64,000 bases of DNA from Candidatus Doudnabacteria bacterium (lineage in GTDB: Bacteria > Patescibacteriota > Doudnabacteria > UBA920): NCBI GenBank assembly GCA_016218585.1, contig JACRDK010000004.1:85347-149346 (forward strand), read 5' to 3'. A program made the position numbers and the translations under genes. Under the pieces are notes generated by a model. That model was not told where the DNA came from, did not search any database, and saw nothing but the letters and a program-made list of their open reading frames with translations. Positions 44,204-61,661 of the stretch are shown in pieces; the first letter of the stretch is position 1, and each line of letters begins with the position of its first letter.

Positions 44204-46867
44204 CTATATTTTTGCGGCCTTACGATAAATTAACTTGCGAATTTCATCCACTAAAATTATGGAGAAAGCCAAAACAAAAACCGCAACCCATTCGCCAAAA
44301 GCAAGCGGCTTGGTTTCTAACAGATGATTAAACCACGGCGTGCTGACCGCCACAAATTGAAAAACTAAATTTATGCCGATAGCCAGCCAAACATAAACAT
44401 TGCCAAAAATCCTTTTGTTAAAAACGCTTTTGAACCTGAATCTGCAGTTAAGCGAGTTATACCATTGAAACATTGCAAGCAGCGTAAGCGCCATAGTTTG
44501 AGCCTTAATTGCATCGGCCAAATAATAAACATGATATATATAGAGGGCGCCTAGTGCCATAGTCAGGCCAATAAGCCCAATATGAATCAACATTTGTCGG
44601 TCTATAAAAAACTTAGACAGCCGGCCGCGATTATTTTTAAAAGAATCGCCTTCGTCTTTTTCCAATGCCAGGGCCGCGCCGGAGAGCGGGTCTGTAATTA
44701 AATTTAGCCACAAAATTTGCACCGCGGTTACCGGCACCGGAATCCGCAAAAACAAACTAAACACTACGGTAAGCAATTCTCCAAAAGAAGTTGAAAATAA
44801 AAACTGCAGGGCTTTCTTTATATTGGCGTACATTACCCGGCCTTCTTTTATGGCCGTAACTATGCTGCCCAAATTATCGTCTAATAAAACTATATCCGCC
44901 GCTTCCTTGGCCACTTCTGTTCCAATTTTGCCCATCGCCACCCCAAGGTCGGCCGCCATTAAAGACGGCGCGTCATTAACGCCGTCGCCGGTCATAGCAA
45001 CGGTTAACCCTAAAGCTTTATAGCCCTGAATGATCTTCATTTTGTCTTCGGGAGTAACGCGGGAAAATACCGAAACTTTGGATAATTTTTCTTTTAACTG
45101 CCCGGGAGAAAGTTCCGCGAGTTCCGTTCCTGTTAAAATTATATCCCCTTCCGAAAAAATTCCGGCTTCCACAGCAATAGTCTTGGCTGTATTTTTTAAA
45201 TCGCCGGTTATCATTACAACTTTAACCCCGGCTTCTTTAGCCATGCTTACCGACTTGGCCGCTTCCGGCCTTAACGCGTCCTCTATTCCCCAAAAACCTC
45301 CAAACACCAACTCATTAATATTATCCAGCGGATGGGTTTTGCTTAAATGCTTAAACCCGTAAGCCACCACGCGCAAACCTTTTTTTGCAAATTCTTCCAC
45401 TGCTTCTTCAAAAAGTTTTTGGTCGGCCGAAGTTTTGGCGTGGGTCAAGCCGTTTTCCACATAATGAGAGGCGTGATGCAAAATAACTTCAGGCGCGCCG
45501 GCAATGGCGCAAAAAACTTTTCCTTCATGTTCATAAAAAACAGCGCGAAATTTGTTTTTATATTCAAAAGGAATTTCCGCGGCTTCAACATACTTCTTTT
45601 CTTCCGTTTCTTTGGCAAATCCCAGTTTTTCTCCAAACACCAACATAGCGGCCTCGGTCGGATCGCCGGAAACCTTATAACCGCCGGTATCCTGCACAAA
45701 CTGCACCCCGGCTTTATTTGCCAAGCAAGCCACCAGCGCGCTCTGTTTTACGTCCGCAGACTGATTCTCGTTTTTTCCTCCAAACTGCGCTTCGCCCTTT
45801 GGCTCATAACCATTGCCGGTTACGGAATAAATTTTCTTTCCTGTATATAAATTTTTTATGACCATTTCATTTTTAGTCAGGGTACCGGTCTTGTCTACGG
45901 CAATTATATTCGCTTGGCCCAAAGCCTCCACAGCCTGCATTTTTTTTACCAAAGCGTTCTTTTTGCTCATGCGCCAAACGCCATGAGCCAAAATTAAAGT
46001 TAAAACCAAAGGTAGCCCTTCCGGAATTACAGAAACGCCTAAAGAAACAATTAAGGCAAACATATCTCTGGGAGATTGCCCGGCTTGTGTGCCAAGAATA
46101 AACAAAAAAACGGACATTGCCACTACCAAATAAATAATAAATTTGGAAAGTTTTTTTATATTTTTTTGCAGCGGCATTTCGCTTTCTGGCATTAGCAAAG
46201 TTTGGCTGATTTTTCCAACCTCGGTGTTTATGCCGGTTCCAACAACAACAGCCAGCCCGTCGCCACCCAAAATCGCTGTTCCCTTAAAAACCATATTATG
46301 CTGGGAAGAAATAGGCAAATTTTCATCTGCGAGCGGACCTTCTTTTTTATGGACCGCTGCCGATTCCCCGGTTAAGGCGGATTCATCTGTGCTTAAGTTA
46401 TGTGAAAAAAATACTCTGGCGTCCGCCACCGCGCGCTGCCCTTCCTTTAAAACCAAAATATCTCCCGGGACTATCTCGGCTTCCAAAACAATAACCTCCT
46501 CGCCTCCGCGCAATACCGAAGCCTCCGCCGTAGATAATTTTTTTAAACTCTGCAACATTCTGCCGGCTCTCCCCTCCTGTACCGCCCCAATTACCGCGTT
46601 AATCAACAGGACAGCCAAAATAATATAGGCATCGGTATTTTCCCGCAAATAAAAAATTATGGCTGCGCAAGCCACCAAAATATAAATTAATGGGCTTTGA
46701 AATTGTCGCAAAAAAATAACCAGCCAGCTTTCCGGCGGCTTTTCCGGCAAAATGTTTGCCCCATATTGCTTTAGGCGGGCGCTAACTTCTTGCGGAGTCA
46801 AACCTTTTTCCAGGTCGGTTTTCAGTTCCTGGGCAAGTTGTTGTTTTGTGTATTGATACCAATTCAT
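44204..46867 (-). CDS. P2-type cation (Ca2+-like) ATPase
   Basis: TGES, IPEGL, DKTGTLT, TGDGVNDAP. Confidence 0.92.
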   Translation of the reverse strand: MNWYQYTKQQLAQELKTDLEKGLTPQEVSARLKQYGANILPEKPPESWLVIFLRQFQSPLIYILVACAAIIFYLRENTDAYIILAVLLINAVIGAVQEGRAGRMLQSLKKLSTAEASVLRGGEEVIVLEAEIVPGDILVLKEGQRAVADARVFFSHNLSTDESALTGESAAVHKKEGPLADENLPISSQHNMVFKGTAILGGDGLAVVVGTGINTEVGKISQTLLMPESEMPLQKNIKKLSKFIIYLVVAMSVFLFILGTQAGQSPRDMFALIVSLGVSVIPEGLPLVLTLILAHGVWRMSKKNALVKKMQAVEALGQANIIAVDKTGTLTKNEMVIKNLYTGKKIYSVTGNGYEPKGEAQFGGKNENQSADVKQSALVACLANKAGVQFVQDTGGYKVSGDPTEAAMLVFGEKLGFAKETEEKKYVEAAEIPFEYKNKFRAVFYEHEGKVFCAIAGAPEVILHHASHYVENGLTHAKTSADQKLFEEAVEEFAKKGLRVVAYGFKHLSKTHPLDNINELVFGGFWGIEDALRPEAAKSVSMAKEAGVKVVMITGDLKNTAKTIAVEAGIFSEGDIILTGTELAELSPGQLKEKLSKVSVFSRVTPEDKMKIIQGYKALGLTVAMTGDGVNDAPSLMAADLGVAMGKIGTEVAKEAADIVLLDDNLGSIVTAIKEGRVMYANIKKALQFLFSTSFGELLTVVFSLFLRIPVPVTAVQILWLNLITDPLSGAALALEKDEGDSFKNNRGRLSKFFIDRQMLIHIGLIGLTMALGALYIYHVYYLADAIKAQTMALTLLAMFQWYNSLNCRFRFKSVFNKRIFGNVYVWLAIGINLVFQFVAVSTPWFNHLLETKPLAFGEWVAVFVLAFSIILVDEIRKLIYRKAAKI

Positions 46868-46946
46868 GCTAAGACTAGAATTAAGAATCTTGAATCATGA
46901 ATTATGTTTTGCTTCTATATTCCTAACTCATGATTCTATTTTTAAA

Positions 46947-47978
46947 TTATTTTTCGGCTCCCGCCTGAAGACTGATGCGGTAAATATCAAGTAAGGCTAA
47001 AAAGACAGCCATTAAAATCGGTCCGAGCAAAAAACCAAGCGGACCAAAAAACTGCAAGCCGCCAATAACGCTAAACAAGACTAATAGCGGGTGAATGTTT
47101 GTTCTCGAGCCAATTAATTTTGGGCTTATAATATTATCAATCGTGCCCACGGCAATAGCTCCCCATATAGCCATGCCAACCGCCTGGCCGGTATGCCCTA
47201 CTATAAATAAATATATTACCGCCGGAATAATAGACAGCGAGGTGCCTAAGTTTGGGACTAAGGCCGCCAAGACCGTAAAAGCGCCCCAAAGAAAAGCTCC
47301 GGGAACTCCAAAAATTAAAAATCCCACAACCGCAACAGCACTCTGAGTCAAAGCAATTAAAAATGAACCCTTAACAAGACCGGTAACCGCCGCCTCAACT
47401 TTGGTAACTAAAATATCTTCGTTTTCGGCTGATAAAGGAAAAATAGAATAAACATAGCTTTTAACTTTTTTGCCGTCACGCAATAAATAATAAGCGGTAA
47501 AAAATATTAAAATTAAAGAAACAATAAAACTGGCTAAGTTGGAAAAGACAGCCGTTATTCCAACAAAGGCATTGGCCGCTAAACCGGAAATTTTTTGCGC
47601 CAGGTCGCTTAAAAATTTTAAAGCGTATTCCTGAGTTGGACCGGGCAAACTTTGTATAAAGGAAGTCTTGTCAAAAGATATGCTTCCCTGCTTATAGGAG
47701 TTAAACAAACTGTTAAGTTCATTAAATAACGTTTGCCCAAGCAAATATAATGGCACTATGATAATTAATAAAATAAGAAGAATGGTTAAAAAGGCTGCCC
47801 AGGATTCGCTTTTAATTTCCTTGCATAGCCTGGTGTAGACCGGAGAAAATAAAATTGCCAAAATTGCTCCTAAGGCTAAAAGTTTTAAAAATGGCAACCA
47901 AACAAAAAAGACCACGACCCCTACTAAGCCAAGCAGCAATAGAAAAGTAATTGTTTGTTGTTTTTGGTTTGTAATCAT
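46947..47978 (-). CDS. AI-2E family transporter
   Basis: DNIISPKL...HPLLVLFSVIGG..FG..G..GP. Confidence 0.9.
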   Translation of the reverse strand: MITNQKQQTITFLLLLGLVGVVVFFVWLPFLKLLALGAILAILFSPVYTRLCKEIKSESWAAFLTILLILLIIIVPLYLLGQTLFNELNSLFNSYKQGSISFDKTSFIQSLPGPTQEYALKFLSDLAQKISGLAANAFVGITAVFSNLASFIVSLILIFFTAYYLLRDGKKVKSYVYSIFPLSAENEDILVTKVEAAVTGLVKGSFLIALTQSAVAVVGFLIFGVPGAFLWGAFTVLAALVPNLGTSLSIIPAVIYLFIVGHTGQAVGMAIWGAIAVGTIDNIISPKLIGSRTNIHPLLVLFSVIGGLQFFGPLGFLLGPILMAVFLALLDIYRISLQAGAEK

Positions 47979-47983
47979 AAAAA

Positions 47984-49021
47984 TTATTTAGTTACTAGTT
48001 CTTTGTCTTTGCCGGAATAAATATCCACCAAGGCCATAAACATGGCCATTAAAATTGGGCCGATTAAAAATCCTAAATAGCCAAACAAGACCAATCCTCC
48101 CAAAATACTCAGCAAGGTAACCAACGGATGCAAGTTAGTTTTATAACCAATTAGCTTAGGGCTGATAAAATTACCGATCCCTTGGATTGTTACAAATGCC
48201 CAAATTGTCATACCCACAGCCGCGCCCGTGTGTCCGGAAATAAACAAATAAGCAATTGCCGGAATTAAAGACAATAAAGTTCCAACGGTTGGCACTAAGG
48301 AAGCTAAAACCGTAAACACGCCCCAGAGCAGCGGCTGAGATACGCCGAAAATAATAAAGCCAACCGTAGAAGCGGCGCCTTGCAACAAGGCAACAGTAAA
48401 CGAGCCTTGGACCACGCCATTTATGGCCATTTCTAATTTTTTTACCAGCAAAGCTTCGTGGCTTTGTTCCAGAGGAAATATTCGTTCAATAAAAGCCCGC
48501 AACCTGCTGCCGTCTTTAAGTAAGTAATAAAAAGTAAAGGCTACCAAAATTACGTCCAAAATAAATCCGGCAATGTTAGCGGCAATATCGGTAAGGCTTT
48601 GAAAAGCGTTTCCGGCGAAGGCCGAAGCCTTTGCGGAAATATTATTTAAAATATTTTGCGCCACACCCTGAACCGGCCCGGACAAATGGCTAACAAAGTT
48701 ATTTAAATTGGCAGCTAGGGAACCCTGGCTCGCCTGCTGTGTATAGACATTTACAATTTCATTAAATACCAGCTGCCCAATGCCGTACACAGGAACAATA
48801 ACTAAAATTAATGCAATTATTAAAGTGATGGCGGAGGCCAAACTTTCCGACTTAATGTTCTTGGAAATTTTTAACTTAACCGGTGAAAATAGCACAGCCA
48901 AAATTCCGCCTAAGGCTATTAGCTCAAAAAACGGCAAAAACATTAAGGCCACAGTTAAGCCGACAATTGCGAACAGAATATAGAAGCTAATGTTTTGAAT
49001 TTTGTTTCCGGATGAGGCCAT
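47984..49021 (-). CDS. AI-2E family transporter (tandem paralog)
   Basis: Same C-terminal signature as the neighbouring gene. Confidence 0.9.
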   Translation of the reverse strand: MASSGNKIQNISFYILFAIVGLTVALMFLPFFELIALGGILAVLFSPVKLKISKNIKSESLASAITLIIALILVIVPVYGIGQLVFNEIVNVYTQQASQGSLAANLNNFVSHLSGPVQGVAQNILNNISAKASAFAGNAFQSLTDIAANIAGFILDVILVAFTFYYLLKDGSRLRAFIERIFPLEQSHEALLVKKLEMAINGVVQGSFTVALLQGAASTVGFIIFGVSQPLLWGVFTVLASLVPTVGTLLSLIPAIAYLFISGHTGAAVGMTIWAFVTIQGIGNFISPKLIGYKTNLHPLVTLLSILGGLVLFGYLGFLIGPILMAMFMALVDIYSGKDKELVTK

Positions 49022-49217
49022 AAATATATTTAATTATCTCTCCGTTAAATTATAGCAAATAATTGACAAAAAGGCACTATTTATGCTATATTTTATACAT
49101 CTGCCCTAGAGGTTTTTGGGCAATTTTTATTTGATAAATTAGATTTAAGATTGGCGATTTAAGATTAAAGTCTTGTCCCTTCTATAATCTGTTAACTTTA
49201 ATCCATAATCTAATATT

Positions 49218-51056
49218 ATGAAAAGAGACAACATAAGAAATATTGCCATTATTGCCCACGTTGACCACGGCAAAACCACGCTGGTAGACGCCATGCTCAA
49301 ACAGACACAAACTGTGAAAGTCAACGACGACACCAAAGATTTAATAATGGACTCCATGGATTTGGAGCGTGAACGCGGAATTACCATTCGCGCCAAAAAC
49401 GCTTCCCTTATTTACAATGGCACCAAAATTAATATTGTAGACACTCCGGGACACGCCGACTTTGGCGGTGAAGTAGAACGCACCTTAAGAATGGCTGACG
49501 GTGTTTTGCTGTTGGTGGATGCTAAAGAAGGCCCAATGCCTCAAACTAAGTTCGTGCTTAAAAAAGCTTTGGAACTTGGCCTTAAAGCTATTGTGGTAAT
49601 AAACAAAGTAGATAAAGACGGCGCTGCTCCCGATGCAACCGTAGACAAAACTTTTGATTTATTTGTCAGCTTAAACGCCAGCCATGAGCAATTGGATTTC
49701 CCGATTATTTATGCTTCCGGTTTTAAGGGCTTGGCCGACACAGATTTAGACAGCTTAAAAACCAAAATCGCTTCCGGCGCCGAACCAGACGTCGCTCCCC
49801 TGTTTGACGCGATAATAAAATTTATTCCGGCTCCGGATGTAAAACCCGAAGATCCTTTTGCCATGCTCGTTTTAGCTTTAAAGTATGACAACTACAAAGG
49901 CAAGCTTGGTATTGGCAAGATTGTTTCCGGCGGCGTAAAAAAAGCGCAAAACATTGCGCGCATTAACCCGGCCGGGCAAGCAACAGTCGGCAAAGCCACT
50001 GCTTTGCAAATGTACGAAGGCTTGGCGCCAATTGACGTGGAAGAAGCCACAGCCGGCGATATTGTTGCCGTTGGCGGATTTGATGATATTTCCATTGGCG
50101 AAACTTTAACCGACCCAACCAGCCCAATCCATTTAGAGCCCGTGGAAATTGAACCGCCAACCATAAAAATGACTTTTGGCGTGAACACTTCCCCGTTTGC
50201 CGGCAAAGAAGGTAAATTTGTTACCTCCAGAAATTTGCGCGACCGCCTTTATAAAGAACTGGAAGTTAACGTGGCGCTTAAAGTTGAGCCTTCAGAAGAA
50301 GGCGCGGAAAGCTTTTTGGTTTCCGGACGCGGTGAATTACATTTGGGCGTGTTGATTGAAACTATGCGCAGAGAAGGTTTTGAATTGCAAGTTTCTCAGC
50401 CGCAAGTTATTTATCACGAAAAAGACGGGCAGAAAATGGAACCTTACGAAATGGTTACCATTGACGTTCCTTCCGAATACCAAGGCGCGGTCATTGAAAA
50501 TCTTGGACGACGCGGCGGCGAGTTATTGCATATGGATTCTTCCAACAATACCGAATTGCACGCGGAATATTTAATTCCAACACGCGGTCTTATTGGTTTA
50601 AAAAACCTGCTCCTTACCCAGACCCGCGGCACTGTTATTTTAAACAACTTGTTCGACAGCTATAAGCCGGTTCATGAAATTGACACTCACGTTAATGACC
50701 ACGGCAGCTTAATTTCTTCCGAAACAGGCGTGTCTAATGCTTACGGATTAAACAATGCCCAGGAACGCGGTATTTTGTTTATTGGCCCTGCCGTAGAAGT
50801 TTATGAAGGTATGGTTGTTGGTAAAAATGCTTTAAACAGCGATATTGAATTAAATGTTTGTAAGACCAAAAAACTTACCAACATTCGCTCCTCCGGCACC
50901 GACGAAGCAATTATTTTAACTCCTCCCCGCCCGGTAGAACTGGACTTTGCTCTTGAATACATTGGTCCGGATGAACTGGTGGAAGTTACCCCGCAATCAA
51001 TTAGAATCCGCAAAAAAATCCTTTCCGCGACCGAACGCAAACGCGCCGCGAGATAA
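49218..51056 (+). CDS. typA: Translational GTPase TypA/BipA
   Basis: [35 protein letters not shown]. Confidence 0.97.
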
Positions 51057-51070
51057 AAATTATACAAATG

Positions 51071-51109
51071 AAAACAGCGCTCAAGTCCTCCGGGTTCGAG
51101 CGCTGTTTT
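51071..51109. terminator. Bidirectional terminator
   Basis: AAAACAGCGCTC...GAGCGCTGTTTT. Confidence 0.8.
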
Positions 51110-51134
51110 GTTGCTTGACGGCCTGGTCATTGTG

Positions 51135-51530
51135 TTATCTGATGCCGCCGCTGAACATATTGGCCATTAGCTCGTCCCGATTAGGCCCGCCGAGCCCCGT
51201 TCTGCGAGCAGAAGCAGAACCGGCAGTGCATGGTTGAGATGGCGAAACACTCGCAGTGACAAGCGAGAAATCAACCTCGTCGGGCGAACAAAAAAAATAA
51301 AAGACCAGCTGCTGCGGAAGCATCCACGCATGTCCGTCTTCTATCATTTTGTGATAGAACAGCCAAAGATGATTTATGATTGAAGTCTTTGTCTGCTCAG
51401 TCATGTCTTCAAAACCATCCGTACGATACCATTGCCGAAACAACTCCTCACCAATTTCTAACTGACGATGTTTTGGGCAGTTTGGTTGAGCCGCCTCAAC
51501 CAATAGATCATAAACTTCCTTTTGGGTCAT
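51135..51530 (-). CDS. Orphan hypothetical protein
   Basis: SD AAGGAGG and own promoter. Confidence 0.6.
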   Translation of the reverse strand: MTQKEVYDLLVEAAQPNCPKHRQLEIGEELFRQWYRTDGFEDMTEQTKTSIINHLWLFYHKMIEDGHAWMLPQQLVFYFFCSPDEVDFSLVTASVSPSQPCTAGSASARRTGLGGPNRDELMANMFSGGIR

Positions 51531-51597
51531 AAACCCCTCCTTCTGGATTCACAGACGATTTACCATACCAAAAAAAATAAAAATTGTCTATAAAAAC

Positions 51598-51628
51598 AAT
51601 GGGCGTCGACATGCTGTCGACGCCCATT
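51598..51628 (-). terminator. Hairpin between the two orphan genes
   Basis: AATGGGCGTCGACA-TGC-TGTCGACGCCCATT. Confidence 0.75.
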
Positions 51629-51641
51629 CTGATACCTAACG

Positions 51642-51950
51642 TTATCCGCCACCTACAAGGGAACCCCATTTAATAGGGCTGTTGCTGCCTGGCTTTGTCT
51701 GGGTTTGGATGAATTCATCGAGCCTGGATGTCGGCATCGCTTTGGTCAGATGGACCATACCGATAGTGCCGATTTGGCCGGCCAAGTCACTCTTGGCCTT
51801 TGCAGCGTAGTTGTCGAGGCTGGCAGTAGCACAGACGTGCCTGCCAAAAAGCCTGGCCTCTAGACCGAATTTTGCCAGCAGCGCCTTTGCTGTCTCAAAG
51901 AGGACGCCCTCTCTAAGAACAATGACTATAAGTACAGATCGTTCCTGCAT
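51642..51950 (-). CDS. Orphan hypothetical protein
   Basis: SD AAGGGGG and a promoter nearly identical to that of 51135-51530. Confidence 0.55.
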   Translation of the reverse strand: MQERSVLIVIVLREGVLFETAKALLAKFGLEARLFGRHVCATASLDNYAAKAKSDLAGQIGTIGMVHLTKAMPTSRLDEFIQTQTKPGSNSPIKWGSLVGGG

Positions 51951-52103
51951 AAGTCCCCCCTTCTCAATCCAACAGAGACCTTACCATACCAAAAAAAATA
52001 AAGGCTGTCCAGAAAAGGACAGTCTTTAAATATTGCCATACGTTTTCTCCAAGAGATTAGCACTTAACAGCCTCTCCCTACCCTCCCCTTATGAGGGGAG
52101 GGG

Positions 52104-53084
52104 CTAAAACAGCTGCACTACAATTAAGTCCAACAAAACGCGCGGCGGGGTGCTGGAGGTTTTAAGCTCTTCATCCAGCGCTTTTAACTTATTTAAAAAA
52201 TCCAAAACTTTTTTATTGGCAAAACGGCTGGCAATTTTCTTCATAACAAACAAGCGGCCGCTTTTCCACCCGGTCATTTCCAAAATATCGCCTTCGGTTT
52301 TCTTTTGTTCAGTTAAATCCTGAATCATGGCAACATTACGGAATTGCTCAGCCAGCAATGCATTTAACTGGATAATTGCCGTTTTTTCGTCTGCGGTTGC
52401 CTGCTGGCGCAAAAATCCATGCATTAACTGAAGCGATTTTTGTTTATCGTTATCGGCAATGGCATTGGTAAGCTCAAATACATCCACTTCCCCATTTTCT
52501 GAAACTAAATTATTTACATCTTTTGCCTGAAGAACAGAACCGTTGGCAAAGGCAGCTAATTTTTTTAGCTCGGAATCGGCCTGCCATAAATTATAAACTT
52601 CTTGAACATCTATAATTTTTCCGCCAACTTTAGTTTCTTTTGCTGCATCGCGGCCCAAGCGAACGGCCAACGCTTCCAAAGCCTCGTTGTCCATTGAAAG
52701 TTTGTAATCCTGAGCGCGTTGTTTTAACCAGTTATTCAATTCTTCCCCGTGCGGCAAAGCAAACTGCCTAACTTCAACTTTTGGATTAGCCAACATTTTT
52801 TTATTGTCGGCATTTCTTTTGTCCAGTTTTTCCTCTAAAAAAATTATATGATTTTTGCCGCCAGCCAAAGAATTTACAATGGCCTCGTCTGCAAATTTGG
52901 CGGCCATATTTCTTAAGACGTAAATTTTTTGCTTAGAAAACAGGTCCTGGCCGGCCAAATCCTCGGCCATAGGCATATTCTCGGCATCACTAAAAATTTC
53001 AGGCTTAATGCCCAATTTTTGCTCTAAAACGGCCACTTGTTGCTGTTTCTCAAAGTCATTTGGGCCTAAAAACAAATATAACAT
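52104..53084 (-). CDS. holA: DNA polymerase III delta subunit
   Basis: MLYLFLG start, ELKKL, VFELTNAI, DEELKTS. Confidence 0.8.
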   Translation of the reverse strand: MLYLFLGPNDFEKQQQVAVLEQKLGIKPEIFSDAENMPMAEDLAGQDLFSKQKIYVLRNMAAKFADEAIVNSLAGGKNHIIFLEEKLDKRNADNKKMLANPKVEVRQFALPHGEELNNWLKQRAQDYKLSMDNEALEALAVRLGRDAAKETKVGGKIIDVQEVYNLWQADSELKKLAAFANGSVLQAKDVNNLVSENGEVDVFELTNAIADNDKQKSLQLMHGFLRQQATADEKTAIIQLNALLAEQFRNVAMIQDLTEQKKTEGDILEMTGWKSGRLFVMKKIASRFANKKVLDFLNKLKALDEELKTSSTPPRVLLDLIVVQLF

Positions 53085-53152
53085 AACTCCCTTGAAAATA
53101 TTAGATAAATATGGTAAAATATCAAAGACTTGAAAATTTGCTACCCTCACAT

Positions 53153-53228
53153 GGGTCGGTAGCTCAGCTGGTAGAGCAGTAGCCTCTTAAGCTATTTGTC
53201 GTGGGTTCGACCCCCACCCGACCCACCA
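53153..53228 (+). tRNA. tRNA-Lys(CUU)
   Basis: GGGTCGG/CCGACCC acceptor stem, loop CTCTTAA, CCA encoded. Confidence 0.95.
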
Positions 53229-53434
53229 CGTCGTTCGCGAACGACGTGGCCCACCATGCACCATTCGCTCGTTTTCAGACGACTAGTTCATCATAGAATA
53301 ATGACATCACTAATTGATGTCATTTTTTATTAGGCGCCCAATGGTGCTCCCGGCAACCTGCCCGTCCTGTCTACCGATAGGCAGGCGGCAGGCAGGGATT
53401 CGTCTTCTGGTATACGATTCAGATTCTAAATTTC

Positions 53435-53645
53435 TGGTGCACCCGGCAAGATTCGAACTTGCTACCTTCCCGATGTACATCGGGACGCTCCCCGCCCGCA
53501 CGACTCGTCTGGTGACCTCGGCAGGAATCGAACCTACATCACTGGTTTCGAAGACCAGTGCTCTATCCATTGAGCTACGAGGCCGTCAGGCGAGTCGAGC
53601 GGATATCCAAATGCCTGTCCGCCTCGGGCGGAAGCTTACGGGTGC
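53435..53645 (-). pseudogene. Interrupted tRNA-like scaffold enclosing tRNA-Arg
   Basis: Acceptor GCACCCG/CGGGTGC-A-CCA, T-arm GCAAG-TTCGAAT-CTTGC; D-stem GCTC/GAGC after removing two inserts. Confidence 0.75.
53510..53584 (-). tRNA. tRNA-Arg(UCG)
   Basis: GGCCTCG/CGAGGTC acceptor stem, CTGGT-CTTCGAA-ACCAG anticodon arm, CCA. Confidence 0.95.
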
Positions 53646-53704
53646 ATTTATCCCAATAATTATAGCTTAAGCCGAAAGTTTGCGCTACATAGGCCCAATT
53701 ACAA

Positions 53705-53740
53705 AAATACCCGCCCCAGCTTAAGTTGAGGCGGGTATTT
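53705..53740 (-). terminator. Terminator of the pil operon
   Basis: AAATACCCGCC...GGCGGGTATTT just after the last stop. Confidence 0.75.
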
Positions 53741-53749
53741 ATTTGAGAC

Positions 53750-54064
53750 CTATTGGGAAACTGAGTTATCAAAGGGATTGACGGTAACAGAATTTGAGGG
53801 TTCAAAATTTTGCGCGTTCTTTATCCTGTTAACTACAAGGTCATACTTGGTAAAGTCTATTCTCACACCCTGATCTTTTATTGCCACCTGTGGTTCGCTG
53901 CGAAAATCCATAATTATTTTTACCGATGTTTGAATTTCAAATATTTCCGCCGCTATAATTAACAAAAAAACTACAAAAAATAGCCAGCTCAAATTACGGC
54001 CAAGTTTATTGGTAAAATTTTTAAAAGCAATTATATTGATATTAATTTTATTTAAATTAGCCAT
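53750..54064 (-). CDS. Small TM protein at the PilP position
   Basis: Single TM, NPF motif, last gene of pilMNO operon. Confidence 0.55.
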   Translation of the reverse strand: MANLNKININIIAFKNFTNKLGRNLSWLFFVVFLLIIAAEIFEIQTSVKIIMDFRSEPQVAIKDQGVRIDFTKYDLVVNRIKNAQNFEPSNSVTVNPFDNSVSQ

Positions 54065-54065
54065 A

Positions 54066-54617
54066 TTATTTGCTTAAGTAAAAATTGGCGGTTAAGTTTG
54101 CCGACACTGTTCCCCTGTCGGCGCTGCTTAGGCTTACGCTAGTTAAATTGGTGACAAATCCAAGATTTTCCAAAACTTCAATATAATTAACAACCTGCTC
54201 CAAACTGCCGTTTAAGTTTATGCCATAAGGAACCATGGCTATAGATGTGGCTGTTTTGGCTTTGGCTGCTGTAGCCACTGTACCGCTTATGCCGGACAAT
54301 TGCATTTGCACTCCGACTTTGTCCGCCCAAGTTTCTAAGGTTTCAATTTCTTTTACTAAGGCAACATCCTTGCTAAAAAAATTGTCCGGTTGGTACTGTT
54401 TTTTTGCTAAAGTCTGCAAATCCTGTTGAGCCTTTAAGTAACTGGCTTTTTCTGCTTTCAGCAAAGCCAATTCCTGCCTTTGTTTTGCCATTGAGTCTAC
54501 AATCTTTTGGTTTGACTCATCCAATATTCCAAAAATAAACAAAAACATAACCAAACTGACCGCCAACCAGGAGGTAAATAAAATTATAACTTTATTTTTT
54601 GCGGAAAATTTTCCCAT
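54066..54617 (-). CDS. PilO-like pilus assembly protein
   Basis: TM, coiled coil, G..EQV..YI..LENL; synteny. Confidence 0.7.
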   Translation of the reverse strand: MGKFSAKNKVIILFTSWLAVSLVMFLFIFGILDESNQKIVDSMAKQRQELALLKAEKASYLKAQQDLQTLAKKQYQPDNFFSKDVALVKEIETLETWADKVGVQMQLSGISGTVATAAKAKTATSIAMVPYGINLNGSLEQVVNYIEVLENLGFVTNLTSVSLSSADRGTVSANLTANFYLSK

Positions 54618-54618
54618 A

Positions 54619-55173
54619 TTATTTTAACAGGCTATCCTGGATGCTAAAGGTAAAATGAAACGGTGAATTATTTGGCTTTGCAACATTTTCTAATGGATAG
54701 TCAACATTATAAAATTCTGCGCTATCTTTAAGAATATTATTATATAGCTGAATAACGGTTTCGCGGCTGGAACTCAAACCATTTATAGTGATGGTCTTTT
54801 TAACCGGCTCAACAACAAAAGTATTTATTTTTGTGCCCGGCGGCGGCAAAACCACAAAGGCCTTTATAACCTTTGACCATTTAGGCGAAGAGTTTGCCAA
54901 ATTTTGGAAATCTGAAACCGTATCATTTACCGCTTTAATTTTTTTCTTAATATCAGCATTCTCCTGTTTGCTTACCTGGCCTTGCAAGTCTGCAATTTCC
55001 GCCTTATAAACCCCGGCTTCAATTTGTAAATAAAACTTTGTGCCAAACTGGGCCATAAGAACTAAAATAAAACTAAAAGCCGTAGCCCAAACCAAAACCC
55101 ACAAACTATGAAGCATAACTTCATAGTGCAGCTCTCTCTGTTTATTTTTTGGCAACAGGTTAATTAATTTCAT
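54619..55173 (-). CDS. PilN-like pilus assembly protein
   Basis: INLLP N-terminal motif and TM. Confidence 0.75.
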   Translation of the reverse strand: MKLINLLPKNKQRELHYEVMLHSLWVLVWATAFSFILVLMAQFGTKFYLQIEAGVYKAEIADLQGQVSKQENADIKKKIKAVNDTVSDFQNLANSSPKWSKVIKAFVVLPPPGTKINTFVVEPVKKTITINGLSSSRETVIQLYNNILKDSAEFYNVDYPLENVAKPNNSPFHFTFSIQDSLLK

Positions 55174-55179
55174 ATAAAT

Positions 55180-56247
55180 TTAGTAAACATCAAAGTTCAT
55201 CCCCCGATGAGCCAAGCCGATAGCGGTAACATAGCCCAGGCTATCCAGGCTTTCCATTTGCGGGGTTTTTAAGCCCGGCAAATTTTGCCAGGGATTTGCC
55301 AGCTCAACCTTAGCCACTCCCGCCTCCTGCATTTGTGGGGCTAAAAAGTCAATTAAATTTTTAAGCTTGGCGCTGCCGCCGGCCAAAATAATGCTGCTTA
55401 CTTGTTTTTCGGAATGTTCATTATGGAATTTTAAAATATTTTTTATTTCGGCGCTTAAGTTATTCAACACCGGCAAAACCACCGTGCGGATATTTGGATA
55501 TTCCGTGGTATTAGAGATTCCAACTTTTCTTTTTATTTCTTCGGCCTTGCTGCTGGAAACCCCCATTGTCCTGGCAATACTTTCGGTAAAAGCATTTCCG
55601 CCAATAGGAATGGTTGAGGTAAATTGCAAATTACCCTCCTCCACCATAATTAAGCTGCTGCGGCTGGCGCTAATGTCTACAATCAATACGGTTTCTTTGC
55701 TGTCCTGCGGGATAACAGCTCTATGGCAACTTTGCGACTCAACTTCTAAAGCTACTACTTTTAAACCGGCGCGCTCTAATGTTTCCAAAAATCCATCCAC
55801 AAACTGTTTTGGCGAGGCAACCATTAAAATATTCATTTTATCCCCTGTTTCGCCAATCTTTTGCCAATCTAAATAAACCTGGTCTATAGGCAGCGGGATA
55901 AAGCTTTCCGCTTCAAATGGTACGGCATTCTCCGCTTCTTTTTCACTCATTAAGGGAATCTGAATTACTCTAACAAAAGATTTTGATTCCGGCAGGCTGG
56001 CCACGACAAAATTAGTATCAATTTTTCCAAATTGAGGCTTTTGCAAAATTTGCTTAACTAGGAAATTAAAAGTTTTTCCGTCGGTGACAGCGTCGTTAAT
56101 TATCATCCCCTTGGGCAACGACACTTCGCCAAATCCTTTTAAAATAGATTCTTTTTTGTTTCCGTGAAATTGGGCAATTTTTAAGGTGGCGTTGCTAACA
56201 TCCAATCCAAATGCCGGTAAATTTTTAGACAAAAAGTTAAATTTCAC
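55180..56247 (-). CDS. pilM: Type IV pilus assembly protein PilM
   Basis: FGLDVS, IPIGG, LAGGSA, AIGLA. Confidence 0.9.
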   Translation of the reverse strand: MKFNFLSKNLPAFGLDVSNATLKIAQFHGNKKESILKGFGEVSLPKGMIINDAVTDGKTFNFLVKQILQKPQFGKIDTNFVVASLPESKSFVRVIQIPLMSEKEAENAVPFEAESFIPLPIDQVYLDWQKIGETGDKMNILMVASPKQFVDGFLETLERAGLKVVALEVESQSCHRAVIPQDSKETVLIVDISASRSSLIMVEEGNLQFTSTIPIGGNAFTESIARTMGVSSSKAEEIKRKVGISNTTEYPNIRTVVLPVLNNLSAEIKNILKFHNEHSEKQVSSIILAGGSAKLKNLIDFLAPQMQEAGVAKVELANPWQNLPGLKTPQMESLDSLGYVTAIGLAHRGMNFDVY

Positions 56248-56342
56248 AATTTTTTTCTCCAGATTAAATATAACAGGAATATTTAAAAAAATGAAGCTCT
56301 GCTAGCATCCTATATCCTAGATACTAAATTCTAAATGCTATT

Positions 56343-57551
56343 TTATTGAATTGTCTGGCTAATGCTATATATAGGGGCAATAAGCGCCATTGCCAAAAAT
56401 CCCACCACGCCTCCAATAAACAAAAGCAATAAAGGCTCGATAATTGAAGACAGGTTTTTTAAGGTTACGTCCACCTCTTCTTCATAATGGCCGGCGAGTT
56501 GCTCCAAAATTTCCTGAACAGTGCCGGATTCCTCCCCCACCTGTATCATTTGTACGACTAAGACCGGAAATAAATTTTCATTTTTGCTTAGGGATTCCGT
56601 TAACGGCTTGCCTAATTTAACATCAACAGCGGATTGTTTAACCAAATCTTTATAGGGTATATTGTCCAGGGAGTCGGCAGCCACATCCAAAGCCTGAACA
56701 ATAGGAATGCCGCTTTTAAGCAGCGAGCTCAAAATTCTGGAGAAGCGCGCTAAATTTATTTTCTTGATAATGGTATTTATAACCATAAACCGCAACAGGA
56801 AGTTATCTGCCAAAACCCGGCCGGTGTATGTTCTAAGAAATGCAATAAACGCTATAACAAAACCAATTAAACCTGCAATTACTAAAAACGCGTGAGCACT
56901 CATAAAATCAGCAAACACCATTACCACTTTAGTGGTAATGGGCAAATCGCCGCCAAAATCTTTAAAAACAGAAGTAAGGTTAGGCAAAACAAAAATTGAC
57001 ATCAGTACGCCAATTATTAACATCGCGACTACAATTACAGCGGGATAAATCATTGCTCCCTTAGTTTTGCTTCTAAGATCCGCCTCGCGATGAAGCTGAA
57101 TGCTTAAATATTCAAGGCTCTTGTCCAAGTTACCGGACACCTCCCCTACTTTAATCATGCTGAAAAAAATGTTGGAAAATACATTCGGATATTTTTCCAA
57201 AGCTTCCGAAAGGCCTTTCCCCTGCTCTACCTGATTATAAATATCGGTTAAAATATTTTTAAATTTTACATTTTTGGTTTGCTTAACTTGAATTTGCAAG
57301 CCGCGGCTTATGGAAATTCCGGCTTTGAGCATTACACTCAAATTTTCCACAAAATTAATTTTTTCATCCAAAGAAACGGTGGAAATATTTCTTAAAAAAT
57401 CCACCACAGACTTTTTTTGCTGCTCTTCAATATGCGTAAGCAACAGCCCCTGCTCCTTTAGGATATGTCCGGCAGCGGTAATATTTGGGGCCTGTATGCT
57501 GGATGTTTCCTTCTGCCCCGCTTTAGTTATGGCTGTATAGGTAAATTCCAT
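56343..57551 (-). CDS. pilC: Type IV pilus platform protein (PilC/GspF)
   Basis: GEVSGNL, AMIYP, GEESG, IIEP. Confidence 0.9.
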   Translation of the reverse strand: MEFTYTAITKAGQKETSSIQAPNITAAGHILKEQGLLLTHIEEQQKKSVVDFLRNISTVSLDEKINFVENLSVMLKAGISISRGLQIQVKQTKNVKFKNILTDIYNQVEQGKGLSEALEKYPNVFSNIFFSMIKVGEVSGNLDKSLEYLSIQLHREADLRSKTKGAMIYPAVIVVAMLIIGVLMSIFVLPNLTSVFKDFGGDLPITTKVVMVFADFMSAHAFLVIAGLIGFVIAFIAFLRTYTGRVLADNFLLRFMVINTIIKKINLARFSRILSSLLKSGIPIVQALDVAADSLDNIPYKDLVKQSAVDVKLGKPLTESLSKNENLFPVLVVQMIQVGEESGTVQEILEQLAGHYEEEVDVTLKNLSSIIEPLLLLFIGGVVGFLAMALIAPIYSISQTIQ

Positions 57552-57729
57552 AAAACTACAGAAATACTGATTAAACTAATCTACAGAAAACTACAGAATA
57601 TATAAACATATTTTACTGGTTTTACAAATGGCAAACTTTTTAAATCATTAAGTCTTTAAAAAAGCAAAAAAAGATTTTAAAACACGGCTTCTGTAGGTTT
57701 CCGTAGTGCCCCATTGTAGCTTCTTGATT

Positions 57730-59484
57730 CTATTCTTTGCTTACCCTGACAATTTCTTCAATGGTGGTAATCCCTTTTAGGGCTTTTATAAAACCATCTT
57801 CCCACATAAGCACCATACCTTCTTTTTCTCCCTGCTCCTGAATTTCCTGGGCGCTTTTGTGCGCCATGATCATTTGCGCCACGGTATGGGTAACTTCTAA
57901 AATTTCATGCAAGCCCATTCGGCCTTTATAACCGGTATGGCCGCATTTGTCGCAGCCTTGGCCTTTATAAAACTTTAAATCTTTTAGGGTTTTAGTTTTT
58001 GCCGGAACCTGGCCTTCGCGAATTAAAATTGGCAAAAGCTTATCCATATGAAATTGCTTTGAGAGCGAGTCAATCACCGCATCATCAATTTTCATTTCCG
58101 CTTGGCAGTCTTTACAAATAACGCGCACCAAACGCTGAGCCAATACGGCGTTGACTGTTGAAGCTATTAAATAAGGTTCAACGCCAATATCCAACAAGCG
58201 AGGAAGAGCGGCGGCCGAGCTGTTTGTGTGCAGCGTGCTAAACACTATATGTCCGGTCATGGCCGCGTGAACCGCTTCTTCAGCGGTTTCCCGATCGCGA
58301 ATTTCACCAATCATAATAATGTTTGGGTCTTGGCGCAACAAAGCCCTTAAACCGATGTCAAAAGTTAAACCAATTTTAGGATTAACCTGCATCTGGTTAG
58401 CTCCGACAATGCGATATTCTACCGGATCTTCAATGGTAGAAATGTTTACCGACTTGGTATTTAACATAGACAAAACAGTATACAAAGTGGTGGATTTTCC
58501 GCTTCCGGTAGGGCCGGTGACCAACAACATGCCGTGCGGTTTTTTTATGTTCCGGCTAATGGTATCGAGCGAAGCTTGCTCAAAACCCAATTCTTCCAAA
58601 GTCATGGCTTTAGCAGATTCGTCCAACAAACGTATAACCACCTTTTCTCCGTCAAAAATAGGTATGGTGGAAACGCGCAAAGAAAACTTATAACCGTCTT
58701 TTTCAATTTTAAAGCGGCCATCCTGAGGCAAGCGATGTTCGTCAATTTTCAAATTTGAAAGTACTTTAATGCGCGCCACGATTGCCGCCTGGATTACTTT
58801 AGGCAGCGTCATTACATCGTGCAATACACCGTCAATGCGATAGCGAACCACCACTGAACTTTCCTGCGGTTCAATGTGAATATCTGAAGCTTTTTCAAAA
58901 ACAGCATACTCAAGCAATGTGTCTACCACGCGAATCACGGGAATTTCTTCCGCCATTTTTTTCAACGAATCGTCAGCGCTGCTCTCCCCTTCCGGAGAAG
59001 AAACAAGCGGCTTGCTTTCCGGGGTAAACAAATGTTTGATTTCTTTTTCCAAAGAAGAATGATACTTGGAAAGGCCAAAATCCAAGCTGGTTTTCCCAAT
59101 CAAAAAAGTTTTTATATTTAGTCCGGTTTTCTTTTGAATAAACTCTTTTGTCTGTATGTCTTCCGGGTCTGTCATGGCCAAAGACAAATCGTCCTTGGTT
59201 TTGGCAAAACTAATTACCTGATGCCTATGTGCAATTGGCTCTGGGACCAAATTAAGCACGTCCTGGGCAATTTGCTGGGTAGTTAAATCCAATACAGGCA
59301 CGCCTAACAGGGCGGACTTAATTTGTAAAAGTTTGGCTTCATTAAGAACTTTTTTTTCTACAAGAAAATCTTCCCAAGGCGTCGGCACCTTAAGCTGCAT
59401 TCTTTCTTTTTCCAGTGTTTCTATTTTATCGGCGCTTAAAACTTTGTTTTCTTTTAAGGCCAAATTTAACTGCTGCTTATCCAT
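57730..59484 (-). CDS. pilB: PilB/GspE extension ATPase
   Basis: ASDIHIEP, GPTGSGKST, LRQDP, zinc Cys pairs; start at MDKQQ. Confidence 0.9.
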   Translation of the reverse strand: MDKQQLNLALKENKVLSADKIETLEKERMQLKVPTPWEDFLVEKKVLNEAKLLQIKSALLGVPVLDLTTQQIAQDVLNLVPEPIAHRHQVISFAKTKDDLSLAMTDPEDIQTKEFIQKKTGLNIKTFLIGKTSLDFGLSKYHSSLEKEIKHLFTPESKPLVSSPEGESSADDSLKKMAEEIPVIRVVDTLLEYAVFEKASDIHIEPQESSVVVRYRIDGVLHDVMTLPKVIQAAIVARIKVLSNLKIDEHRLPQDGRFKIEKDGYKFSLRVSTIPIFDGEKVVIRLLDESAKAMTLEELGFEQASLDTISRNIKKPHGMLLVTGPTGSGKSTTLYTVLSMLNTKSVNISTIEDPVEYRIVGANQMQVNPKIGLTFDIGLRALLRQDPNIIMIGEIRDRETAEEAVHAAMTGHIVFSTLHTNSSAAALPRLLDIGVEPYLIASTVNAVLAQRLVRVICKDCQAEMKIDDAVIDSLSKQFHMDKLLPILIREGQVPAKTKTLKDLKFYKGQGCDKCGHTGYKGRMGLHEILEVTHTVAQMIMAHKSAQEIQEQGEKEGMVLMWEDGFIKALKGITTIEEIVRVSKE

Positions 59485-59702
59485 AAATGCGCGTTTAGAA
59501 AGCCACAAAATGCTCTAAAAATTAGATTCTGCGGATTTTTGTAGATAAAAAATTTATTTCTGCAATATTTTGTTTCATTTCTTCTAACTAGACTAAGATA
59601 TTATACCACAAAAGTTCTGAGCAACCAAATTTTGTCAGGGAAAAGGCCATTGCAACTAAAATTTCCAACAATTAACCGCGATTTGATAAATCAAATCGCG
59701 GT

Positions 59703-59798
59703 TTTCTATCTTTCTATCTTTCTATCTTTCTATCTTTCTATCTTTCTATCTTTCTATCTTTCTATCTTTCTATCTTTCTATCTTTCTATCTTTCTATC
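59703..59798. repeat. Perfect tandem repeat (TTTCTATC)12
   Basis: Counted directly; abuts hairpin AACCGCGATTTGAT-AA-ATCAAATCGCGGTT (59674-59703). Confidence 0.95.
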
Positions 59799-59800
59799 TT

Positions 59801-61102
59801 TCATCGTCCTTGCCAGGTAAAAATATAATAAACTGTTTTTAAAATTATTTCCAAATCAAACAAAAAGCTTCGATGCTTTATATAATATAAATCGTACTGA
59901 AGTTTTAACTTGGTTTCTTCCACGCTGCCGGCATATATGTTTAACTGGGCCCAACCGGTGAGTCCCGGCTTAACCAAATGCCGTTCGTCATAAAAAGGAA
60001 TTTTTTGTTTTAATTCTTCCACAATGTGCGGCTGTTCCGGGCGAGGACCAACCAAACTCATAGTGCCTAGCAACAAATTTATAAACTGGGGCCATTCGTC
60101 AATCCGGCTTTTGCGCAAAAACTTCCCCACGCCGGTAATTCTTGGATCATTAACCGAAGTCCAGGTATTAGTAGCTCCCCCGCTCATGGTGCGGTATTTA
60201 TAAACTTTAAAAATTTCCCCTTTCTTGCCAATGCGTTCCTGGATAAACAGCACGGGTCCGCGGCTGGACAGCTTAATTAACAAAGCACAAAAAGGAAAGC
60301 TAATGGCAAAACCCAAAAAACCTACCAGTCCGAAAATCAAATCAACGAGTCTTTTTATTAAATTATAAAATCTCTTTTCCTGATAGTTAATGTTTTCCAG
60401 GAACCAAATTTCATTAATTTGAGAAAGATAAACCCGCCGGAGCAATTGTTCGTAAAAATTCTTATGGTTATAAAATTTTACTCCCAGCGTCCTAAGCTTA
60501 TATAGATTTTCCGAAACTTGAGGATTGGCATGCAAATTATCCGGCAAAATAATATTGGCATTTTTTTCAAATGAACTGAGTTCCAGATTCTTTTCATTTA
60601 CATGGCCCAAAACTTTATAACCCAAATAACCCTGATGCTTAATTTCTGTCTCCAATTCAACCAGCTCGTTGTTAAATGAAAACAAATAAACCCCTTCTAT
60701 AAAACGGCTTTTTAAAAAATATTTAACAAGCAGGTGCCAAACTAAAATTAAAACAAAAGCTACCCCGACATTTATTAACAAAAATCTCCTGGGGGTTAAA
60801 ATTAAGTTCGGCTGCAGGTAAAAATACATTACGGCAATTAAAAAATTAATTACCATAGCCGAGATTAAATTAAAAAACAAACTGGAATAACGGCGGAAGG
60901 AAGGAGTCTCAAATAAACCATGAATAAAAAACACTAAAAGCCAAAAAGCATAAATTATGGTGAACGTATTAAAATACGCCGGGTTTTGCTGGACATCGGA
61001 AATTCTCCCAAAACGCAACAAGGCCGAAATGTATAGGCCGGCATAAAGCAAAATTACATCCGGCACCAGAACTAACCAAAAAATAATAGTTTTTTTATTC
61101 AC
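59801..61102 (-). CDS. Polyprenyl-phosphate glycosylphosphotransferase (WcaJ/WbaP-like)
   Basis: KRLVD, KYRTM, DEWPQ, MSLVGPRPE, KPGLTGWAQ. Confidence 0.92.
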   Translation of the reverse strand: MNKKTIIFWLVLVPDVILLYAGLYISALLRFGRISDVQQNPAYFNTFTIIYAFWLLVFFIHGLFETPSFRRYSSLFFNLISAMVINFLIAVMYFYLQPNLILTPRRFLLINVGVAFVLILVWHLLVKYFLKSRFIEGVYLFSFNNELVELETEIKHQGYLGYKVLGHVNEKNLELSSFEKNANIILPDNLHANPQVSENLYKLRTLGVKFYNHKNFYEQLLRRVYLSQINEIWFLENINYQEKRFYNLIKRLVDLIFGLVGFLGFAISFPFCALLIKLSSRGPVLFIQERIGKKGEIFKVYKYRTMSGGATNTWTSVNDPRITGVGKFLRKSRIDEWPQFINLLLGTMSLVGPRPEQPHIVEELKQKIPFYDERHLVKPGLTGWAQLNIYAGSVEETKLKLQYDLYYIKHRSFLFDLEIILKTVYYIFTWQGR

Positions 61103-61111
61103 GTATGTAAT

Positions 61112-61651: not shown

Positions 61652-61661
61652 TAAATTTGGT

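Follow-up and report, generated by a model that had tools for sequence, protein, structure and literature searches.

How does an intact tRNA gene come to lie inside another tRNA gene of the same specificity, and what becomes of the gene that encloses it? These questions are raised by one locus in a genome of Candidatus Doudnabacteria (G000; 1.19 Mb, 41.6% GC, 97.9% complete), studied here within a stretch of 64,000 nucleotides that is called the window and whose numbering is used for all positions without a contig prefix. On the minus strand, from 53645 to 53435, the sequence reads just as the first-pass annotation had described it, with a tRNA nested in a tRNA-shaped shell, and the nested locus sits between pil genes (PilM, TIGR01175) and the pair formed by tRNA-Lys(CUU) and holA (TIGR01128). 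Of the three tRNAs that ARAGORN detects in the window, one is an Arg(UCG) at 53584-53510, which scores 72.4 bits in Rfam, is the sole tRNA called by both programs within the 211-nt stretch and has, according to ARAGORN, Rfam and folding, a canonical cloverleaf with a 7-nt anticodon loop and an encoded CCA. The arrangement is probably the outcome of a small non-coding mobile cassette that entered the resident tRNA-Arg(UCG) gene, inactivated it and took its place. The parts of the locus are as follows.

53705..53740, minus strand: intrinsic-terminator-like hairpin (14 pairs, T tail) closing the upstream pil operon transcript
53659..53664, minus strand: TATAAT box preceding the first base of the shell by 13 nt, with similar spacing in the congeneric locus L008
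53604..53645, minus strand: 5' part of the apparently dead outer tRNA-Arg(UCG), comprising acceptor strand, D-stem strand and D-loop up to GGATA
53614..53632, minus strand: palindromic 19-nt insert (15-nt hairpin plus CAGG) dividing the D stem of the shell at GCT^CA
53585..53603, minus strand: left arm of the cassette, 19 nt, with two changes from the family consensus CCCGCCCGACTCGCCTGAC
53510..53584, minus strand: the cargo, an intact 75-nt tRNA-Arg(UCG) with encoded CCA
53491..53509, minus strand: right arm of the cassette, 19 nt
53435..53490, minus strand: 3' part of the apparently dead outer tRNA, comprising D-stem strand, replaced anticodon arm, intact T arm, acceptor strand and ACCA
53468..53485, minus strand: 18-nt perfect palindrome replacing the 17-nt anticodon arm of the shell
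53342..53404, minus strand: remnant tRNA 3' end (part of the T-loop, acceptor strand, ACCA)
53300..53324, no strand assigned: AT-rich hairpin that separates the converging tRNA genes and, on the plus strand, resembles a terminator
53153..53228, plus strand: tRNA-Lys(CUU), the adjacent gene by which the orthologous locus is recognised in relatives
52104-53150, minus strand: holA, beyond tRNA-Lys(CUU)

The cassette thus comprises 113 bp, a complete tRNA-Arg(UCG) between two 19-nt arms, and splits the D-loop of the shell exactly between GGATA and GAGC, with nothing duplicated or lost. Apart from one extra A at 53637/53636 in its 5' part, the shell carries two further palindromes, both of types also present in other dead tRNA copies of G000. 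The one in the D stem exists as annotated at first, but measures 19 nt (53632-53614) rather than 15, and a related insert occupies the identical point in L246 and L167. The one in the anticodon arm is indeed perfect and replaces the arm, but is 18 nt long, not 18 bp; its 16-nt core is also found in a dead tRNA-Ala(GGC) copy (G000:C22:28385-28400), again in place of the anticodon hairpin, so that in both the Arg and the Ala copies a hairpin is swapped for a hairpin instead of being inserted, and a variant of it occurs in L008. Downstream, the remnant at 53342..53404 is itself split by nested palindromes at 53396-53357, and its homologue follows the intact gene of L008; the remnant probably represents a third, older tRNA layer. 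The TATAAT box is the probable promoter of the old gene and would now drive the cargo; it lacks a good -35 element, and a promoter scan made no call there. The 3' end of tRNA-Lys(CUU) is adjoined by a 24-nt perfect palindrome (53226-53249), of which a near-identical copy adjoins tRNA-Val(UAC) at G000:C22:53424 and others are scattered through the genome.

An artefact of assembly, in which the tRNA genes of two organisms had been joined, would produce a similar picture, and no single independent contig holds both junctions: among the Logan contigs of run X1, which may be the source sample and would then not be independent of the assembly, 52800-53578 and 53550-54300 are covered with 0 differences, the break lying within the tRNA shared by both pieces, and none of the listed contig pieces spans the full 211-nt stretch. 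Both junctions nevertheless fall within these 0-difference contigs, and the 5' junction is also contained, again with 0 differences, in a 151-nt record (53567-53717) of run X2, from another study. Since the same architecture moreover recurs in dozens of independently assembled genomes, a misassembly is extremely improbable.

As RNA, the 211-nt stretch is predicted to form the inner cloverleaf as well as the outer acceptor and T stems (z = -4.76 vs 200 shuffles), with pairing probabilities in the predicted ensemble of 0.93-1.0 for the inner acceptor stem and 0.95-1.0 for the outer one. The idea that the arms clamp the inner tRNA holds for their inner part, which pairs firmly (p >= 0.94), but the pairing of the outer CCGC with the right arm appears in only ~25% of structures. 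In the predicted precursor, the leader also pairs with the terminal CA of the cargo (p ~1.0).

The origin of the shell is indicated by relatives. An intact 77-nt Arg(UCG) gene of the congener G015 (L008) equals the shell, compared by eye, at 60/60 retained positions, barring the extra A, and plain GCACCCG-type genes adjoin tRNA-Lys(CUU) in G007, G010 and G017. The first-pass annotation had noted that GCACCCG resembles bacterial tRNA-Arg genes; as judged from this comparison, the shell is the older tRNA-Arg(UCG) gene of the locus. The orthologous locus was retrieved for 17/19 genomes of the genus and classed by eye: six are nested with parts of a shell (G000, G002, G005, G009, G013, G018), involving at least three arm families and three sites; three hold only arms or arm remnants (G003, G014 and probably G011); two contain other dead fragments (G015, G016); and six look plain.

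The cargo, for its part, is the sole Arg(UCG) gene among the 47 tRNA calls of the assembly. Because the Arg set of G000 consists of GCG, UCG, CCG, UCU and CCU, with no ACG, and 558 CGA codons occur among the 267,869 codons counted, the cargo would, under standard wobble rules, very probably be essential. The first-pass proposal that a dead tRNA-Arg was replaced through a palindrome-borne insertion is therefore strongly supported, also by the recurrence of a whole family of such cassettes, except that cargo and shell are different Arg(UCG) alleles, the cargo, of 75 nt, being unlike the 77-nt-type shell and no copy of it.

A search for the left-arm pattern in GTDB genomes yielded 95 loci, of which 39 are linked to tRNA genes, including 26/26 of those titled as Patescibacteria lineages; several cassette records are titled Ca. 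Doudnabacteria, and two tRNA-linked loci are titled Gammaproteobacteria (possibly mis-binned). An intact tRNA-Arg lies within 19-22 nt of the arm start at 36/95 loci; the other linked ones are two at which the tRNA-Arg is itself split by a cassette and one at which a tRNA-Ile is enclosed in a tRNA-Ile. The remaining 56/95 were rejected as cassettes, being mostly chance matches in GC-rich genomes. Pooling of all loci with arm and tRNA gave 42 non-redundant ones, mostly from Patescibacteria and patchily distributed across lineages, all of them with Arg cargoes, among which five anticodons are represented, and in all 42 the 19-nt arm joins the cargo at its first base or no more than 2 nt from it. 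Both arms are present in 32/42 (26 in the D-loop, 5 in the anticodon loop and 1 at another site), while in 10/42 neither a right arm nor a 3' half of the shell can be recognised. A scan of metagenomes for closer relatives gave nine matches, of which one, L246, is real. Viruses were considered as vectors and rejected, since the left-arm matches in IMG/VR are not linked to tRNA genes (6/6) and no viral copy was found.

The cassettes appear to select a defined target. The D-loop site is GATA^GA and the anticodon-loop site is TT(C/T)^TAA, or TTA^(G/A)A on the opposite strand, so that the two insertion sites share, on one strand, the putative target (A/T)TA^GA. The flanks of the 32 full cassettes are GATA or CTTC on the 5' side and GAGC, GAAC or TAAG on the 3' side, the arms begin with CCCGCCCG, and a 2-nt target-site duplication is present in 0/32. 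Searching by insertion site returned 44 matches in 33/132 genomes of the class, 33 of them real and distributed over 27 genomes, and 46 matches in 33/401 genomes of the phylum, of which 33 are real, compared with 8 for the reversed-pattern control. Related arms also enclose Val(UAC), Val(CAC) and Ile(GAU) inside genes for the same tRNA, and serial nests occur at L021, L036, L041, L072, L079 and L201. The exact arms of the window occur once in G000 and looser CCYGCCCG-type hairpins nine times; none of the 95 loci has the arms in exactly this form without a cargo, only a hybrid hairpin (L125) being present. Two further nests were observed in G000, both with AT-rich spacers within the arms: an Arg(CCG) in a D-loop cassette (C5:86780-87140; L287) and a Val(CAC) in an anticodon-side cassette (C8:10420-10700; L288). 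Arms of the CCYGCCCG superfamily are also seen around 60-80 nt of AT-rich non-tRNA DNA at G000:C18:37070-37168, C22:91108-91197 and C23:10344-10429, where the flanks, (T/C)A and GA, are as for tRNA cassettes.

The relationship between cargo and shell bears on how these loci arose. The anticodon of the host is readable by eye in 17/26 D-loop shells and equals that of the cargo in 17/17 (permutation, 1.2e-7, the related genomes not being independent); the other nine are degraded, and no shell shows a different Arg anticodon. The longest tract common to a cargo and its own shell averages 12.8 nt, vs 9.5 nt when permuted within the anticodon class (p ~1e-4, in a test that treats loci without regard to their relatedness), and reaches 40 nt in L059 and 28 nt in L246. 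In the window the tract is only 7 nt, so that conversion is not visible in its own cargo. Cargo acceptor stems, in contrast to the interiors, differ from those of the shell, and one of them, GGCCTCG, is found on UCG, UCU and CCU cargoes. L246 combines the shell type, the arms and the cargo acceptor stem of the window with a cargo interior that resembles its own shell. The simplest reading of these alignments is that arms and acceptor stem travel jointly and that the interior may be swapped with the 3' half of the host.

Similar matches between cargo and shell would be left if there were no mobile unit at all and, locus by locus, a tRNA gene had been duplicated locally and independently captured in a generic palindrome. 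Local tRNA duplications beside GIY-YIG genes are in fact common in G000, and cargo and shell are almost identical in L232 and L237, besides the long common tracts elsewhere. However, a single 19-nt arm recurs next to the cargo start at all 42 loci and with five anticodons, the acceptor stems track the cassette and not the host, and the cargo allele of the window is unlike its shell, which together make this local origin quite unlikely. The mobile cassette remains the preferred reading, and in L237 (G002:C21:1-900) the arms enclose, along with the Val(CAC) cargo, a promoter-like TTGAC...TATAAT stretch; some cassettes may thus carry a promoter of their own.

Whether the shell retains any function is a separate matter. 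ARAGORN and Rfam find no contiguous cloverleaf with a readable anticodon in it. Removal of the inserts as first bracketed leaves an 83-nt remainder that ARAGORN does not call; with corrected brackets, the two removals leave 79 nt that are called, but only as 'tRNA-???', with no valid anticodon. When the cassette alone is removed from the 32 homologous shells, nine are called with the anticodon of the cargo, two with an abnormal one and 21 are uncalled. These nine restored shells and the exactness of the insertion are what would be expected if the inserts were excised from RNA like introns, yielding two tRNAs, and G000 does contain a true group I intron, in a tRNA-Asn. Against such splicing, the other 23/32 shells are unrestored by removal, the shell of the window has no anticodon loop after all removals, and a spare gene stands beside nearly all cargo-free inserts. 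Moreover, in a difference from group I and II tRNA introns, no intron family match or ribozyme core was obtained with Rfam at the nested locus even at E <= 1 in 50000-58000, though the Asn intron was detected. Intron-like excision is accordingly very improbable.

More weight is due to the proposal, also present in the first-pass annotation, that the shell is maintained, under selection in at least some lineages, as a processing scaffold or a non-decoding tRNA-like RNA, a variant of which has RNase P and 3' trimming use the acceptor and T arm as their handle. The shell of the window does have perfect acceptor and T stems and a CCA, with no substitution relative to L008 at the 60 compared positions. 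In run X3, a relative represented by one contig of depth 4.5, for which 26 of the 29 differences are listed, the left arm has the consensus form CCCGCCCGACTCGCCTGAC, and no listed difference falls within 53604-53666, which includes the 5' part of the shell, compared with ~15/83 differing positions just upstream. Among the 32 homologous shells, 15 keep both stems (T arm plus >= 6/7 acceptor pairs, with damage read by eye), several of them while damaged elsewhere. However, 16 have the T arm or acceptor stem split, mutated or lost (one more is cut by a contig end); the ten loci already mentioned have no recognisable 3' half of the shell; T-loop inserts are present in L246, L164 and L227; and the sister pair L119/L258 shares its cargo (72/72 identical) and arms (37/38 identical) between shells that have diverged. 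Transitions could be masked by G-U tolerance, and recent insertion or recombination would also leave stems intact. On balance, a maintained scaffold seems unlikely and that proposal is mostly unsupported, the shells of the family for the most part decaying. We read the shell of the window as dead, its intact stems being explained by recent insertion or recombination.

If insertion kills the host and the cargo rescues it, palindromes lacking a cargo should be tolerated only where another gene can serve, and this can be compared with the cargo-free palindromes at the D-loop site. An intact tRNA gene for the same amino acid lies within 340 nt in 24/27. Among the three exceptions, one genome has an intact copy elsewhere, and the other two are the tandem Val(GAC) genes of G461 (L276; G461:C12:284300-284532), which hold the same palindrome in both copies and lie at a contig end. 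A pattern search, of which 30/45 tRNA matches were examined, found no intact Val(GAC) in the G461 assembly, and this pair stands as one open counter-example to the killed-and-rescued reading.

The course of events suggested for the cassette would begin with its exact insertion at GGATA | GAGC, without duplication or loss, and the same arms would have used, as the comparison between lineages indicates, both the D-loop and the anticodon-loop sites in a patchy manner. Insertion would inactivate the host and the cargo would rescue it, a well-supported step by which simple deletion of the cassette would be barred. The interior of the cargo, including the anticodon, may then be exchanged with the adjacent 3' half of the host by recombination or gene conversion, as the shared tracts support, so that one arm pair could serve five Arg anticodons. 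As a corollary, left-arm-only loci would arise where the two 3' halves recombined, and the 10/42 loci without a right arm would in part be expected from such recombination. Since the cargo would recreate the target, serial nests could follow, and the dead shell might gather more palindromes. Bacterial tRNA precursors are processed by RNase P and 3' trimming. Transcription from the old promoter would thus yield a precursor of at least 211 nt, from which RNase P and 3' trimming would free the cargo; genes for the RNase P protein, RNase III and two members of the CCA/poly(A)-polymerase family are present in G000.

The survey of candidate mobilisers covered the Y1 and GIY-YIG families. RAYT/Y1 proteins were rejected, as they occur in 13/27 palindrome carriers vs 55/105 other genomes (Fisher p 0.83). 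G000 has 11 GIY-YIG hits; PF01541 (Pfam) was found in 4/4 proteins tested, for which NCBIfam gave no named family. Five small GIY-YIG genes of this genome lie between a palindrome-damaged 5' copy and the full copy of a structured RNA gene, namely tRNA-Asn, -Leu, -Ala, -Asp and, by eye, an RNase P RNA-like gene. The tRNA-lodged ones are those at G000:C29:45867, C28:81302, C22:28155 and C30:14920. Among the genomes of the class, D-loop palindromes are present in 0/47 with <= 3 GIY-YIG hits and in 27/85 with >= 4, a genome-level correlation among kin that could also reflect the general load of mobile elements. At the nested locus, no GIY-YIG gene was found among ORFs of at least 90 aa in 46000-62000. 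From these associations, GIY-YIG nucleases of 80-100 aa lodged in duplicated tRNA genes emerge as the leading candidate, with slightly less than even confidence, and they might cut and move the arms in trans.

Several details of these modules deserve mention. At G000:C28:81300-81900 (L285:303-892), the group I intron (Rfam RF00028, 59 bits) lies in a tRNA gene read by eye as Asn, and ahead of this gene come a GIY-YIG gene of 81 aa and a 5' copy damaged by a palindrome; ARAGORN calls no tRNA-Asn in G000. At G000:C27:58600-59250 (L286), a GIY-YIG gene lies between a short duplicated 5' end and the RNase P RNA-like gene, for which Rfam made no call in the stretch examined, and the module would thus not be limited to tRNA genes. 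Three other GIY-YIG genes (G000:C29:6122, C31:3212 and C28:26622) have hairpins on both sides in an Ssn-like layout, the copy at C31:3212 being a frameshifted near-duplicate of that at C29:6122. One short Y1/RAYT-like gene (143-aa frame) lies between GTAG-type palindromes at G000:C29:54292-54609, and a doublet of this GTAG-type repeat occurs near G000:C29:45660.

The cassette acts like a non-autonomous inverted-repeat cassette, yet it fails the features tested for MITEs and MICs, REPs and REPINs, SRMs, islands and introns. Target-site duplication is a defining trait of MITEs. With MITEs and MICs, as these are presented in the portions of PMC3733652 and PMC5444012 consulted, the cassette shares its non-autonomous nature, imperfect inverted repeats of ~19 nt at its ends and a passenger gene; it differs in the missing duplication (0/32), in that the passenger is the very gene destroyed, and in that no cognate transposase was identified in the Y1 and GIY-YIG survey. 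REPs and REPINs (BIMEs) are depicted, in the sections available from PMC3733652 and PMC6006769, as short GC-rich non-coding palindromes with a hairpin doublet around a spacer, some REPs nesting in other palindromes. The cassette resembles them in its GC-rich palindromic arms around a spacer, its non-coding nature and its nesting. However, its spacer is a whole essential tRNA gene, it inserts at a set position within tRNA genes, the GTAG or CGTC tag is absent from the ends of the 32 cassettes, there is no association with Y1 and no array of extragenic copies, the exact arms occurring once in G000, and the one Y1 gene of the genome is flanked by a different, GTAG-type repeat.

For some integrative elements the attB is a tRNA gene, which they restore. 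Like the islands integrated in this way, the cassette inserts in a tRNA gene and leaves a working tRNA together with dead fragments, such as those that mobile elements are reported to leave behind in the part of PMC9897764 consulted. Unlike them, it measures 113 bp, has no integrase or attL/attR direct repeat, retains host halves on both sides and brings a complete gene with its own acceptor stem in place of a replacement end. Palindromic elements of Rickettsia also insert into RNA genes. They appear in the relevant section of PMC3733652 as palindromes inside genes of a reduced genome that are tolerated and have no cargo, in contrast to the cassette, whose host gene appears inactivated and replaced.

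A precedent for the proposed mobiliser could be SegB, a free-standing GIY-YIG homing endonuclease of phages T4 and T6 that, in the passages of PMC2330249 and PMC13096335 consulted, cuts a conserved motif of tRNA genes and spreads tRNA genes, also in trans. It acts, however, on a T-loop motif and between phages, whereas the cassette uses the D-loop or anticodon loop, is non-coding and is chromosomal. The Ssn proteins, of the cd10448 clade, are, in the text of PMC11893778 consulted, tiny single-domain GIY-YIG nucleases with NTS/SRM hairpins, which cut ssDNA next to these hairpins and affect natural transformation; the words 'tRNA', 'CPR' and 'Patescibacteria' are not mentioned in that main text. 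The SRM consensus has 0 matches in the locus and in the arms of the 32 cassettes, a weak test given that it has four matches genome-wide and none in the eight GIY-YIG regions checked, including the hairpins of the Ssn-looking genes. In the literature covered, which took in few subscription papers, no account was found of palindromic cassettes that carry a tRNA and lie inside a cognate tRNA gene, and term searches within PMC9897764, PMC4390854, PMC3733652, PMC6006769 and PMC11893778 showed no such cassette.

The present analysis tested one arm family over five anticodons and two sites with a common target, the spare-gene rule, the exchange of stem versus interior, and the co-occurrence of GIY-YIG versus Y1 genes. 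tRNA genes are usually regarded as stable core genes, and 6/17 Arg(UCG) loci of this genus are nested. In a broader and still tentative proposal, which we would hold less firmly than the nuclease candidate, the cassettes may represent a minimal class of selfish DNA of ~110 bp that destroys and replaces a tRNA gene, adopts its anticodon by recombination, nests without limit because its target is regenerated, and is moved in trans by small tRNA-lodged GIY-YIG nucleases that act on hairpin DNA, the essential tRNA genes of many Patescibacteria being continually turned over by several independent cassette families. If the cassette reading holds, the element would be about the smallest conceivable addiction element, with the cargo as the antidote to its own insertion, tRNA alleles in Patescibacteria would move sideways, and the reading would account for the tRNA debris and the odd acceptor-stem variation in this group. 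The sequence (A/T)TA^GA would also provide a defined substrate and cut site with which to probe the function of the small, abundant GIY-YIG proteins, a possible source of new site-specific nucleases.

Some other features of the tRNA set of G000 are recorded here. The output of ARAGORN with introns and a relaxed score was mostly noise. A second tRNA-Trp(CCA) and a second tRNA-Leu(CAG), of unlike sequences, lie on very short contigs (G000:C1:2720 and C19:2836) and are possibly contamination of the bin. Finally, a tRNA-Ile(UAU) is present and only two genes with a CAU anticodon are called (C22:65142-65218 and C30:14502-14752), which suggests that AUA is decoded without a lysidine tRNA.
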